DNA from: Schaalia meyeri
GTDB lineage: Bacteria; Actinomycetota; Actinomycetes; Actinomycetales; Actinomycetaceae
Length of the DNA: 32,000 nt
Direction of reading: 5' to 3'
NCBI RefSeq assembly: GCF_900105015.1
Contig: NZ_FNLK01000006.1
Coordinates: 60,001 to 92,000, forward strand
Below are positions 7,832-12,957 of the stretch, piece after piece. The notes beneath the pieces were generated by a model that did not search any database, was not told the origin of the DNA, and worked only from the letters and a program-made list of their open reading frames with translations. The translations under genes and the position numbers were made by a program. Positions within the stretch are counted from its first letter, which is position 1, and every line of letters begins with the position of its first letter.

Positions 7832-8155
7832 GTGAGTGGACCAGGTTTTGGGCTTGTTGTCGGGGCACAAACGAAGGCAGCAAGCTACGTCGTGGACTGT
7901 GCTGATGCCCTGGTGGGTATTGCGCGCAACTTGGACTCTGACGTGTCGGGGGAATTGTCACGAGTGACGGGCCCCTACTTGTCCGTATTGCGTGAGACGC
8001 TGGACACGTGGGAGGAGGGCGTGGGCGCACACGTGGCCGACTTGGGGCGCTACACACAGGCTCTCGTCGCGGTGGATGAGTCGGTCCTGGCGGCAGAGGA
8101 GGATGCCGTCACAGCTCTGCGCGATGCCGCCTCAGGCTTTGGGGGCGCGGTATGA
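7832..8155 (+). CDS. Small helical protein, first of three WXG100/Lap-like putative T7SS helper proteins
   Basis: It encodes 107 aa from a GTG start with GGGAAGGA upstream. The composition is helix-rich, with a central LDTWEEGVG (W-x-x-G). Its stop overlaps the next start (ATGA at 8152-8155). Confidence 0.6.
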   Translation: MSGPGFGLVVGAQTKAASYVVDCADALVGIARNLDSDVSGELSRVTGPYLSVLRETLDTWEEGVGAHVADLGRYTQALVAVDESVLAAEEDAVTALRDAASGFGGAV

Positions 8156-8451
8156 GCAATCGGGACCTGGTTTTTCGTGAAACGGCCGTGAACTACATGA
8201 TGGACGACATTGCCTGTGCGGTTGCGAAAATACGCGAGGGGAGCGCAGAGATGTCGGATCTCGTGGAGCACGAACTCGTGGAATGGACGGATACCTCCGA
8301 GGCCAGGCAGGCGCAGCAAGCGTGTGCGCAGCGTCTGGATGCGCGAGCTGAAGACCTGGCGGCCGCCTTGGATGCGCTGAAACAGGCGTTCGAGGATATT
8401 CGCCAGGCTGGTATCGAGGCGGAAACCCTGGCTTTTGCGGCGGTGGATTAG
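8152..8451 (+). CDS. WXG100-like small protein (99 aa)
   Basis: The length is ESAT-6-like. The central segment LVEWTDTSEARQAQQACAQRLDARAEDLAAALDALKQAFEDIRQAG resembles the WXG100 helix-turn-helix, with a degenerate W-x-D turn. It is translationally coupled upstream, and a GGAGG RBS for the next gene follows its stop. Confidence 0.6.
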   Translation: MSNRDLVFRETAVNYMMDDIACAVAKIREGSAEMSDLVEHELVEWTDTSEARQAQQACAQRLDARAEDLAAALDALKQAFEDIRQAGIEAETLAFAAVD

Positions 8452-8460
8452 GAGGCGAAT

Positions 8461-8802
8461 ATGGGAAATCATGATTTTGAGGTCGATATCGAGGCGCTGA
8501 CAAAGGCGGCATCGGAGTTGGCGGATCTGCAGGGGCGCAACAGGACGTACGACGTGGCGGATTACACCCCGAACTCCGCGATGGTCCGAGACCCGGTTGT
8601 TGTAGGGGCCCTGGAACGATTTAATACCGCCTGGGATCAGGGGCTTAACGGTATGCTTCGCGACGTGTCTGAGGCCGCGGGGCGTTTGGGCAAGGTCGCG
8701 GGCATTTACGGGGACTACATGACCACATGCGAGGATGCGATGAAGCGGGCGCGTGATGTGGCGGGGTCCGTGTCGACCGATCAGATGGTGGCGGGATCCT
8801 AG
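8461..8802 (+). CDS. Small helical protein (113 aa), third putative T7SS helper
   Basis: An ATG follows the RBS GGAGG. The segment FNTAWDQGLNGMLRDVSEAAGRLGKVAG is helical. The gene ends 1 nt before the toxin GTG start. Confidence 0.6.
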   Translation: MGNHDFEVDIEALTKAASELADLQGRNRTYDVADYTPNSAMVRDPVVVGALERFNTAWDQGLNGMLRDVSEAAGRLGKVAGIYGDYMTTCEDAMKRARDVAGSVSTDQMVAGS

Positions 8803-8803
8803 C

Positions 8804-11199: not shown

Positions 11200-11388
11200 T
11201 TTACGGGGCAGCAGCTGCCTGAGGGGTGGACCATCAAGTCGGGGAAGGTCGCTCCCTGGGGTCAGCAGCCGGGTGGGGCTACGCGGCTGCAGGTTTTTAA
11301 AGACGACGGAAGTGTCGCAAAGGTTGAAGACCTCCTTAAGGAAGGAATTCTTAAAGGAAAGGAGAATCCTATTGGACTTCATGGATGA
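11200..11388 (+). pseudogene. Orphan 3' fragment of a TNT toxin gene (last ~62 codons only)
   Basis: FTGQQLPEGWTIKSGKVAPWGQQPGGATRLQVFKDDGSVAKVEDLLKEGILKGKENPIGLHG matches the toxin C-terminus. No upstream TNT or secretion region is present. The upstream part of ORF 11122-11388 is Cys-rich junk. Confidence 0.6.
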
Positions 11389-11898
11389 GTATGCGGAAGT
11401 GATGAACAAGTACACAAAGACGGAGGTGTATAACGATTTTAAGAGGGGGTACACGGGCCTGTCGATAACGTATGGTTTTGCTTTGCGGGATATGTTGTGG
11501 TTGGAGGATGGTGTTTATTGTTTTGATGAGGAGGAGCGTGGGGAGGTGCGGAGGGGGGGATGTTCAATTCGCCTTCGATCGATTTGACGCAGAAGGTGAT
11601 GCTGAACTACACGGTGTCGATCTTGCGACACGCTCTTGGGTTTGAGTCGCTGGGGTTGCCGATGGAGGAAGATGAATTGCCAAACGGTTGGCGGCTTCAA
11701 GAAGCCCCAATATGGCGTTATGTTGCTCTTGATGGCCCCAATGGTGAGCATTTGGATTTTGAGACTTCTGGTGAGCGTTTCTGTGTTCCGTTAGCATGGC
11801 TCTACGATGTTTCTCCCTCCGAGTTGTTGCATACGTACATGTTGCCCGATGGTGGCCCCTTGCTGCGCCGGTGGCTGGGGCGTCCCTACTGGCGGTGA
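11372..11898 (+). pseudogene. Immunity-protein paralog interrupted by a frameshift at a poly-G tract
   Basis: The N-terminal part LDFMDEYAEVMNKY...GVYCFDEEERGEVRRGG lies in one frame. The C-terminal part MFNSPSIDLTQKVMLNYTVSILRHALGF...LLRRWLGRPYWR lies in another. They join at G7 (11553-11559), where the intact copy has G8 (10762-10769). Confidence 0.7.
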
Positions 11899-11986
11899 GG
11901 ACAAACGTGACACCGGCCCGGAGACAGTGAAGCAGCCGGGGCCATCACCCCCTACACTGAGATTGCCCCAACGAAGGAAGCACAGC

Positions 11987-12439
11987 ATGGATAACAGTCA
12001 GATCCCCGACGTGCACTCGCCGGACTTCCCCAACACGAGCGTGCTCAAGTGGACCCCGGACGGTCCGACCGTCCTGGCGAACATGGATCGAGCCACCGTC
12101 ACCACCTACACCAGCTACCTGGCCTACACGCACACCTACGGCCCCCACGTAGACCGGCTGGGGGACCCCGGTGGCAAATACTTCTGGCAGCTCCCCGCCC
12201 AGGGAACGCCCTTCACGCTGGAACAGCGAGCCCTCGACATCTACGCGCTGAACGATCCCTACTACCAGTACCGCATCCTCACGCTGCCGACAGGATTCTC
12301 CATCCGCACCGGCATCAATATCCCGCAGTTCTCCCTGCCCGGAGGCGCGCGGCAAGTCCAATTCCTGGCGGGCGACTACGTGCTGACCGCCAACGAATGC
12401 CTGCAGCTGAGCATCCTCGAAGGAAAGGGGCAGAACTGA
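11987..12439 (+). CDS. Stand-alone TNT-domain protein (150 aa) without a secretion/N-terminal region
   Basis: An ATG follows the RBS GAAGGAAG. The translation is KWTPDGPTV...YGPHVDRLGDPGGKYFWQLPAQGTPFTLEQRALDIYALNDPYYQYRILTLPTGFSIRTGINIPQFSLPGGARQVQF. It keeps the DR(I/L)G, G-x-Y, EQRAL and GG-x-x-Q motifs of the TNT domain. Confidence 0.7.
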   Translation: MDNSQIPDVHSPDFPNTSVLKWTPDGPTVLANMDRATVTTYTSYLAYTHTYGPHVDRLGDPGGKYFWQLPAQGTPFTLEQRALDIYALNDPYYQYRILTLPTGFSIRTGINIPQFSLPGGARQVQFLAGDYVLTANECLQLSILEGKGQN

Positions 12440-12957
12440 TGTCCGTCACCGCCGACCTCATCGACTTCGCGCGCGACAGCGGAGCCATCTCCTCCGTCTA
12501 CAACGGCAACGGGATCGCCCTGACCTGGGACGCCGGGCGCAGCTGGCAGCACGTGTGGGACACAAAGAATTCGCCCCGCCCCCAAGCATTCTACGGAGAA
12601 AGCGAATACCTGGAGTCGCGCGTGCCCACCATGATCAGCGACTACGGCGAGATCATGCTGAAGTGGGCCATCATGCGTATTGGAGAAAAAGCACGCTGGC
12701 GCAGGCGCTGGCCACGCATCGACGTGCCCGCAGACACCGCCAGCGTGGACCCCCAGTGGGGCTTCGAGCAGCTGACCCCCATCACCGGCCGACTCGCCCT
12801 GGACAGCGGCTATATCCCGATGGAGCTGCGCACCATCTTTCCCGCCCACCCCGAACTCAATCAGCTGTCGCACGTCATGCAGATGGACTTTGATGCCCTC
12901 CTGGCCGCCTACAGGGACCCCTCGGGAGGTGAACTGCTGCGGCAGTGGGTGAACTAA
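12439..12957 (+). CDS. Putative immunity protein for the stand-alone TNT domain (172 aa), distant paralog of the 10581-11108 product
   Basis: The ATG overlaps the TNT stop (TGATG). The C-terminus LSHVMQMDFDALLAAYRDPSGGELLRQWVN parallels LAWLYDVSPSELLHAYMLPDGGPLLRRWLG of the first immunity protein. Confidence 0.65.
   Translation: MSVTADLIDFARDSGAISSVYNGNGIALTWDAGRSWQHVWDTKNSPRPQAFYGESEYLESRVPTMISDYGEIMLKWAIMRIGEKARWRRRWPRIDVPADTASVDPQWGFEQLTPITGRLALDSGYIPMELRTIFPAHPELNQLSHVMQMDFDALLAAYRDPSGGELLRQWVN

Follow-up and report, generated by a model that had tools for sequence, protein, structure and literature searches.

Toxins that carry a TNT domain are known from several type VII secretion systems (T7SSs). 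CpnT of Mycobacterium tuberculosis, encoded in the gene cluster esxF-esxE-cpnT-ift, is exported by type VII secretion (PMC7810871, PMC8092274). A related locus is described here from Schaalia meyeri. It lies in a stretch of 32,000 nucleotides (contig NZ_FNLK01000006.1, positions 60,001 to 92,000), referred to below as the window, and is composed of three small helper genes (A, B, and C), a TNT toxin gene (D), an immunity gene (E), and an array of further modules that ends with the gene pair H-I. The locus is very probably a substrate operon of an Esx (type VII) system of oral Actinomycetaceae (Schaalia/Pauljensenia), where an antibacterial toxin that destroys nicotinamide adenine dinucleotide (NAD+) would be produced together with its helpers and its immunity. 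This reading rests on the domains identified, on the conservation of the catalytic residues, on gene linkage throughout the family, and on evidence of purifying selection. An earlier note, made from the DNA sequence alone, had already proposed a T7SS-type polymorphic toxin locus at this position, and all of its coordinates for open reading frames (ORFs), junctions, and motifs are correct on re-check.

The Schaalia locus resembles esxF-esxE-cpnT-ift in its homologous toxin domain with the same catalytic residues, in an immunity protein homologous to IFT, in the small WXG100-type genes upstream of the toxin, and in type VII export, which is predicted for Schaalia. The earlier note had likened the order of small WXG genes, toxin, and immunity gene to this cluster, and the likeness extends to homologous TNT and IFT. 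Unlike the mycobacterial cluster, the Schaalia locus has three helpers instead of two and a polymorphic-toxin layout with extra modules, and its likely target is bacterial, not the macrophage. The phmmer match of toxin D to the solved TNT fragment of CpnT covers residues 384-587 only, with no match to CpnT upstream of the TNT region. As a monoderm, the host does not require the toxin to act as an outer-membrane channel, a further difference from CpnT.

TelB of Streptococcus intermedius is an antibacterial, TNT-homologous NADase. It is exported by a T7SSb in an EssC-dependent manner and has WXG100-like partners and an immunity protein (PMC5555719). For LXG toxins, targeting depends on a composite heterotrimeric complex, with an acidic export arm contributed by a partner (PMC10801868). 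Like TelB-TipB with its Lap/WXG100-like partners, the Schaalia locus encodes a TNT-type toxin on an N-terminal helical targeting domain, with small helical partners upstream and immunity downstream. Unlike TelB-TipB, it is actinobacterial (T7SSa-type), possesses WxG in place of LxG, and has three partners in place of two. Its carrier matches the Pfam model T7SS_signal, not LXG, and weak LXG matches are observed in only 3 of the 44 family A helpers.

EatA-TapA1/A2-EatI of Mycobacterium abscessus is an antibacterial, ESX-4 dependent system (Benedict et al. 2026, PMC13444075). Loci made up of Tap and a helical-bundle toxin are widespread in Actinomycetota, and TNT is among their commonest payloads (PMC13444075). 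Compared by architecture, not by sequence, these loci match the Schaalia locus: one or more Tap-like helpers accompany a toxin with an N-terminal helical bundle and a variable toxic part, and an immunity gene lies downstream (PMC13444075). They are reported with one or two Tap-like genes, whereas the Schaalia-type family consistently has three. The study makes no mention of Actinomyces, Schaalia, or Nocardioides. The earlier note was wrong in stating that the architecture had not been characterised outside mycobacteria, as both TelB (PMC5555719) and the Tap-like loci of Actinomycetota (PMC13444075) attest.

EsaD of Staphylococcus aureus is a T7SS toxin whose export is assisted by three small helical partners, EsxB, EsxC, and EsxD (PMC10653861). 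It is similar to the Schaalia system in having three such partners and in being held inactive by an immunity protein. It differs in its T7SSb, its nuclease payload, and its chaperone EsaE, and the partners have no detectable sequence homology.

The TNT domain of toxin D

Toxin D is made up of a T7SS_signal domain (residues 13-184), a conserved region (~185-300), a low-complexity linker, and the TNT domain (~440-590). A Pfam search of 8804-10594 (toxin D) and 11987-12439 (protein H), with a cut-off of 27 bits for TNT and for T7SS_signal, gave TNT at 59.9 and 40.1 bits, respectively, and T7SS_signal on 8804-10594. The TNT match (PF14021) spans residues 492-587 of toxin D. By phmmer, the toxin aligns with M. 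tuberculosis TNT (4QLP_B) over ~200 residues (E=7.4e-25), and its AlphaFold2 (AF2) model matches 4QLP_B in Foldseek (E=1.3e-10). The nearest relatives of toxin D are annotated as 'TNT domain-containing protein' in Schaalia odontolytica, Actinomyces sp. oral taxon 180, and Pauljensenia, with 76-92% identity.

Mutagenesis of M. tuberculosis TNT has shown that Phe727, Asp756/Arg757 (DRxG), Tyr765, Arg780 (QRxL), and Gln822 matter (PMC6398120). For the residue comparison, 4QLP_B was numbered with DRIG at 756-759. In the phmmer alignment, W468, D496/R497, Y505, R519 (in ERAL), and Q564 of toxin D correspond to F727, D756/R757, Y765, R780, and Q822 of TNT. The sole change among these mutagenised residues is the replacement of F727 by Trp (W468), which is conservative. 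The Arg codon is located at 10292-10294 and the Gln codon at 10493-10495. The profile score, the 4QLP_B match, and this alignment bear out the earlier proposal of a TNT domain with equivalent catalytic residues. His792 of TNT is Tyr532 in toxin D; the TelB counterpart of His792 is His661, whose mutation attenuated TelB (Whitney et al., PMC5555719). Because of the TNT homology and the conserved mutagenised residues, toxin D is expected to be an active NAD(P)+ glycohydrolase.

The intact genes of the locus are under purifying selection. Ratios of nonsynonymous to synonymous substitution rates (dN/dS), calculated against two or three orthologous loci, are 0.06-0.24 for A, B, C, D, E, H, and I. 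Helper A has 0.18-0.24, helper B 0.06-0.11, and helper C 0.08, while E has 0.15 (against locus L004), H 0.14 (against strain F0310), and I 0.18.

The N-terminal carrier and its polymorphic family

The N-terminus of toxin D matches Pfam T7SS_signal (PF21725) at 62.4 bits. An AF2 model of the carrier was built from an alignment of 58 relatives, an earlier single-sequence AF2 model of residues 1-380 having been poor (predicted local distance difference test score, pLDDT, of 53). Across residues 10-180 the pLDDT is mostly above 90, with 85-90 in 41-70 and 80 in 131-140. The model contains a helix (17-43), a loop (44-51) that holds G48-W49-V50-G51, a very long helix (52-122), and another helix (140-182). 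With generic BAR-type bundles set aside, its structural matches at probability 1.0 are PPE4 in PE5-PPE4-EspG3 (template modelling score of 0.64-0.67 on target) and PPE15. In the PE/PPE pairs that type VII systems export, it is the PPE protein that carries the WxG. Profile match, predicted bundle, and PPE likeness all agree with the T7SS-type carrier of the earlier note.

A bipartite WxG plus YxxxD signature had also been read in this carrier, and only its first part stands. The WxG is real: in WVG (8948-8956, residues 49-51), W49 is invariant in the 58 relatives and G51 is Gly in 51 of them. The YxxxD, read in YGLSD (9332-9346), is probably a chance occurrence, with Y177 being Tyr in 4 of the 58 and D181 being Asp in 5.

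The first ~310-360 residues of the toxin recur in 333 clusters (50% identity), with proteins of up to 1572 aa among the matches listed. The C-termini found on this carrier include ADP-ribosyltransferases (ART), TNT, glutamine deamidase, Rhs, and nucleases. Since one carrier bears many C-terminal toxin types, these proteins form a polymorphic toxin family. The swapping of toxin types, together with the array of repeats and remnants downstream, bears out the polymorphic, modular layout proposed earlier.

Residues ~185-300 (window 9356-9700) form a conserved helical region after the T7SS_signal, with a DWDTWADDP-type motif. E235, P259, P280, A283, G285, and P289 are invariant in the 58 relatives. 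The AF2 confidence of this region is low, and no Pfam model covers it.

Locus L004, from a metagenome-assembled genome (MAG) of Actinomyces, encodes a toxin orthologue at 10001-11779 that has an in-frame stop after residue 116. Its helper and immunity genes are intact.

The three WXG100-like helpers

The helpers were followed across 82 loci, composed of 80 with carrier relatives (one genome per species) and two from strain F0310. These loci span Actinomycetaceae, Propionibacteriaceae, many Nocardioides, Aeromicrobium, and a Rubrobacteraceae MAG. In iterated profile searches, helper A is found beside the toxin gene in 80 of the 82 loci, and helpers B and C in 81 each. Helper C is located directly upstream of the toxin, on the same strand, in 81 of the 81 loci having upstream sequence.

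The order A-B-C-toxin is observed in Actinomycetaceae and Propionibacteriaceae. In Nocardioides and relatives (L019-L082, ~8900-9600), A and B are on the opposite strand and divergent from C-toxin. The divergent A and B are real genes, because their GC content at third codon positions is at least 0.9. This arrangement implies two promoters in an intergenic region of ~100 nt, as opposed to the single operon of Schaalia. Since the linkage survives rearrangement across orders, there is strong evidence that A, B, C, and the toxin act together.

The WXG100-like character of the helpers, as claimed in the earlier note, is supported through the orthologue families and not through the window copies themselves. 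Pfam WXG100 is matched by 28 of 44 orthologues in family A (best E=8.4e-9), 29 of 46 in family B (best E=6.3e-6), and 24 of 31 in family C (best E=5.4e-4). The family A profile (A3) matches the EsxA/B-type protein 4LWS_A of T. curvata (E=1.8e-4) and ESAT-6 (E=4.6e-4), both at full length. The family B and C profiles have no significant match in the PDB, and the C profile has no WXG100 match. In hhalign, A and B are related with a probability of 55% (E=1.2e-4), and the A-C (16%) and B-C (9%) matches are weak.

The sizes of the helpers (107, 99, and 113 aa) fit WXG100, and a literal WxG is absent in all three. In its place, family A has FxG as its consensus (VTG in the window copy), family B has GWxE, and family C has WExG. 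In helper B, W45 is invariant. In helper C, Y83 is invariant and is followed by an acidic residue at +2 in 28 of 31 relatives and by Asp at +4 in 22 of 31 (Y-x-[ED]-x-D). By analogy with PE/PPE and LXG/Lap, helper C is proposed to be the supplier of the acidic export arm.

Positions 1-68 of the T7SS_signal profile are unmatched in the toxin, and helper C was also considered as a detached N-terminal piece of this domain. This idea was dropped, as no member of the C family matches PF21725 even at E<=1.

Immunity proteins E and I

E and I are ~18% identical and have a C-terminal motif in common. Iterated searches from E draw I-type proteins into the same family. The profile of this 19-member family (A6) matches 4QLP_A, the immunity factor IFT co-crystallised with TNT, over 126 positions (E=1.2e-8). 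Pfam Imm61 is matched by 3 of the 19 members (best 2.7e-7), and E of the window scores 19.7 bits, under the cut-off. On the basis of the shared family, the IFT match, and the Imm61 matches, E and I are assigned as TNT-type immunity proteins. The IFT-like immunity gene that the earlier note had placed downstream of the toxin is upheld by the profile match and by its overlap with the toxin stop. In related loci, I is always directly after H.

In Actinomyces sp. HPA0247 (locus L072), six IFT-like paralogues are located in tandem at 16741-20447, downstream of a paralogous T7SS_signal toxin. The array resembles the immunity gene arrays at Firmicute T7SS loci.

Proposed mechanism and target

In the proposed mechanism, the N-terminal ~180 residues of the toxin would fold as a PPE-like three-helix bundle whose first two helices are joined by the WxG-bearing loop. 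The three upstream WXG100-like proteins would pack against this bundle, with helper C supplying the conserved Tyr/acidic export arm. Bundle and helpers together would form a composite signal for an EccC ATPase whose gene would lie in another part of the genome. The C-terminal TNT would then hydrolyse NAD(P)+ in the recipient cell, and the IFT-like product of the overlapping downstream gene would bind and block the toxin in the producer and its kin. The downstream array may be a record of recombination and immunity collecting, as is usual at polymorphic-toxin loci, and would comprise a recombination scar (toxin tail and frameshifted immunity gene) and a second, divergent TNT/IFT pair.

A physical link to type VII secretion is observed in locus L051 (Aeromicrobium), where the B-A / C-toxin module is ~2 kb from EccC, EccD, and two canonical WXG100 genes (esxA/B). 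This EccC has 1324 aa and three FtsK/SpoIIIE domains. In S. odontolytica F0309, a functional, eccC-dependent Esx system restrains Saccharibacteria epibionts (September 2026 preprint, PMC13622651). Eight candidate substrates of this strain are encoded outside the Esx cluster, each adjoining a small WXG100-like hairpin gene, and the defence against Saccharibacteria depends on effectors of unknown mechanism (PMC13622651). By the study's own account, this bacterial family had no identified Esx effector until then (PMC13622651).

Several points weigh against an Esx substrate operon. No T7SS core gene is found within the 32-kb window. The F0309 secretome contained, under the conditions used, only four Esx-dependent proteins, all cluster-encoded, and the preprint makes no mention of TNT or NADase (PMC13622651). 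As single sequences, the window copies of helpers A, B, and C have no match in Pfam (E<=1), NCBIfam, or the PDB, and their likeness to WXG100 is transitive, via their orthologues. Helper C of the window reads Y-G-D-Y-M, with Met and not Asp/Glu at +4, as in its clade. Finally, complex formation, Esx dependence, NADase activity, and the target are elements of the mechanism that we infer.

The most likely target would be neighbouring bacteria or epibionts of the oral biofilm. One carrier serves many toxin types, which is typical of interbacterial polymorphic toxins, and extra immunity genes and toxin remnants accompany the toxin, with six tandem IFT-like paralogues in L072. Both features speak against a host-directed toxin like CpnT/TNT, one that would act on human mouth cells while the IFT-like protein only protected the producer before export. 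Such a toxin is very unlikely here, even though M. tuberculosis TNT-IFT, whose known target is the macrophage, is the nearest relative of solved structure for toxin and immunity protein alike, and Schaalia spp. are opportunistic pathogens. TelB, a TNT homologue exported by a T7SSb, is antibacterial (PMC5555719), and the Esx system of S. odontolytica acts on bacterial epibionts (PMC13622651).

The downstream array and the H-I pair

Downstream of the D-E pair, the segment 10402-11062 is repeated directly at 11193-11852. The start of this second copy falls within the toxin gene, so that no more than the final ~62 codons of TNT are retained. The resulting toxin tail is 78% identical to 10402-10621 and lacks the DRxG, Tyr, and QRxL motifs. 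Pfam TNT matches the ORF that contains it at a marginal 27.3 bits, over profile positions 50-86 (C-terminal half) only. In the toxin tail and the 5' third of the immunity gene, it has diverged from the first copy. The second immunity gene is a mosaic whose 3' two-thirds are 96-100% identical to 10763-11062 and whose 3' frame matches Imm61 at 15 bits. It contains a G7 run at ~11552-11559, where the paralogous copy has G8 (10761-10768), and its frame is broken because one G has been lost from the run. The gene may be a genuine pseudogene or be subject to phase variation by slippage, or the missing G may be a sequencing error in the homopolymer. This second module looks like a recombination scar. 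Of the three toxin/immunity modules counted in the earlier note, one intact pair (D-E) and the H-I pair stand, whereas module 2 is a toxin tail with a frameshifted immunity gene.

Protein H is 34% identical to residues 458-590 of toxin D and possesses the same full catalytic set. Its gene has its own ATG with a purine-rich stretch upstream. The ~50 database clusters that are at least 57% identical to H are all short (87-203 aa, and 145-159 aa for those with full coverage), and T7SS_signal is found in none of them. In 11 Schaalia-group loci, H is downstream of a T7SS toxin operon on the same strand.

The earlier note had taken the third module to be an orphan. H as a displaced C-terminal orphan is ruled out by its close relatives, which are all short, free-standing, and without T7SS_signal, and by its DNA similarity to the main toxin, which is limited to 29 nt. 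With a complete domain, its own start, coupling to I, short relatives, and low dN/dS, H is a maintained gene, not a decaying orphan, and the module is instead based on a conserved free-standing gene of 150 aa.

H has no export domain or signal peptide. It is conserved as a free-standing gene in ~50 clusters, is under purifying selection, and is translationally coupled to its inhibitor. These properties would suit an intracellular NADase toxin-antitoxin or abortive-infection module, where the locus, or at least the H-I pair (11987-12957), would stabilise the island or kill infected cells. NAD+-depleting effectors are common in defence systems; however, no PADLOC defence model matches any protein of the locus, and the position of H in the 11 Schaalia-group loci ties it to T7SS toxin operons. 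For the main toxin, the T7SS carrier and the three helpers argue for export. An intracellular module is given little chance next to an exported, Esx-dependent toxin.

A wider proposal combines two claims. The first is that H-I is a conserved module of a new kind, where H would either be exported by Esx as a cargo taken up in trans by the neighbouring carrier/helper complex or act as part of an intracellular NAD+-depleting toxin-antitoxin or suicide module. The second is that the helper trio and toxin residues ~185-300 (DWDTWADDP motif) would form a T7SSa targeting complex of four proteins that differs from the PE/PPE, Tap, and Lap systems. That both hold is doubtful.

Novelty and significance

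The principle of T7SS-exported TNT toxins is already established for mycobacteria, for Firmicutes, and, since 2026, for antibacterial T7SSa toxins of mycobacteria. For this reason, the value of the locus is that of a tractable example and not of a conceptual surprise. The NCBI product name of the toxin is already 'TNT domain-containing protein', and a Pfam model already exists for the carrier. Literature searches on PF21725 and on Actinomyces combined with TNT and T7SS found nothing. Undescribed in the literature examined are the three constant WXG100-like partners of this carrier family, the distribution of the carrier family in Actinomycetaceae and Nocardioidaceae, and the free-standing TNT/IFT pair.

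In Actinomycetaceae, experiments have yet to address an Esx effector whose toxin domain is enzymatic. For the newly tractable Schaalia Esx system, the locus is a candidate effector with a clear predicted activity (NAD+ hydrolysis), a cognate inhibitor, and defined partners. It raises the question of whether the Esx system of oral Actinomyces also mediates NADase-based antagonism, and of how EccC recognises a WxG carrier with three WXG100-like partners. Two divergent TNT/IFT pairs side by side also open the question of how immunity specificity evolves.

Gene organization and surroundings

The toxin block is made up of packed, same-strand ORFs between an ABC-F ATPase gene and a TetR / tRNA-Gln / glmU / prs / rplY block (Table 1). 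A and B overlap by ATGA at 8152-8155. The TAG stop of C (8800-8802) is followed by one base and then the GTG start of the toxin at 8804. E starts with TTG at 10581 and overlaps the toxin by 14 nt, up to its TGA (10592-10594). H and I are joined by TGATG, a TGA/ATG overlap at 12437-12441. In strain F0310, the operon is located at the same chromosomal site as in the window, and the downstream array differs.

Table 1. Features of the Schaalia meyeri toxin locus and its borders (window coordinates).
Feature	Coordinates	Strand	Description
ABC-F ATPase gene	5806-7740		Upstream neighbour of the toxin block
Helper A	7832-8155	+	107 aa; putative divergent hairpin protein of the WXG100 superfamily, by orthology
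Helper B	8152-8451	+	99 aa; WXG100-like, by orthology
Helper C	8461-8802	+	113 aa; WXG100-like, by orthology; candidate carrier of the Tyr/acidic export-arm motif
Toxin D	8804-10594	+	596 aa; T7SS_signal carrier and TNT
Immunity protein E	10581-11108	+	175 aa; assigned to the IFT/Imm61 family; putative cognate of toxin D
Truncated toxin tail	11193-11388, within short ORF 11122-11388	+	Last ~62 aa of TNT only
Second IFT-like immunity gene, frameshifted	11381-11898 (ORF pair 11381-11587 and 11560-11898)	+	
Standalone TNT protein H	11987-12439	+	150 aa; all catalytic motifs; without export domain
Immunity protein I	12439-12957	+	172 aa; IFT-like; translationally coupled to H
Degenerate IS256-family transposase	13339-~14320	-	Includes a 216-aa ORF (13339-13989)

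The window has a GC content of ~0.67, as high-GC actinobacterial DNA. Across 10000-12000 (10-12 kb), over the immunity and toxin-tail modules, it falls to 0.55, with flanks of ~0.67. This low-GC stretch is consistent with imported or fast-evolving cassettes.

A degenerate transposase of the insertion sequence (IS) family IS256 marks the distal edge of the toxin island. Its 216-aa ORF corresponds to positions 169-374 of the Transposase_mut profile, and the N-terminal part of the remnant is upstream, in other frames.

Beyond the transposase, a palindromic array of the octamer TGGATAGG is located at 14390-14505. Copies on the + strand are at 14407, 14426, and 14445 (19-nt spacing), and copies on the - strand are at 14460, 14479, and 14498. 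All six matches of the octamer in the window fall in this array, with 0.29 expected by chance. It may represent a set of operator sites or the end of an IS.

Promoter and terminator scans were uninformative, and an Rfam scan gave no RNA match besides one tRNA. A tRNA-Gln(ttg) gene is located at 16436-16507, between tetR and glmU. At the other end of the window, two adjoining RpfB-like genes (DUF348-G5-transglycosylase) are found at 560-1801 and 1898-3307.

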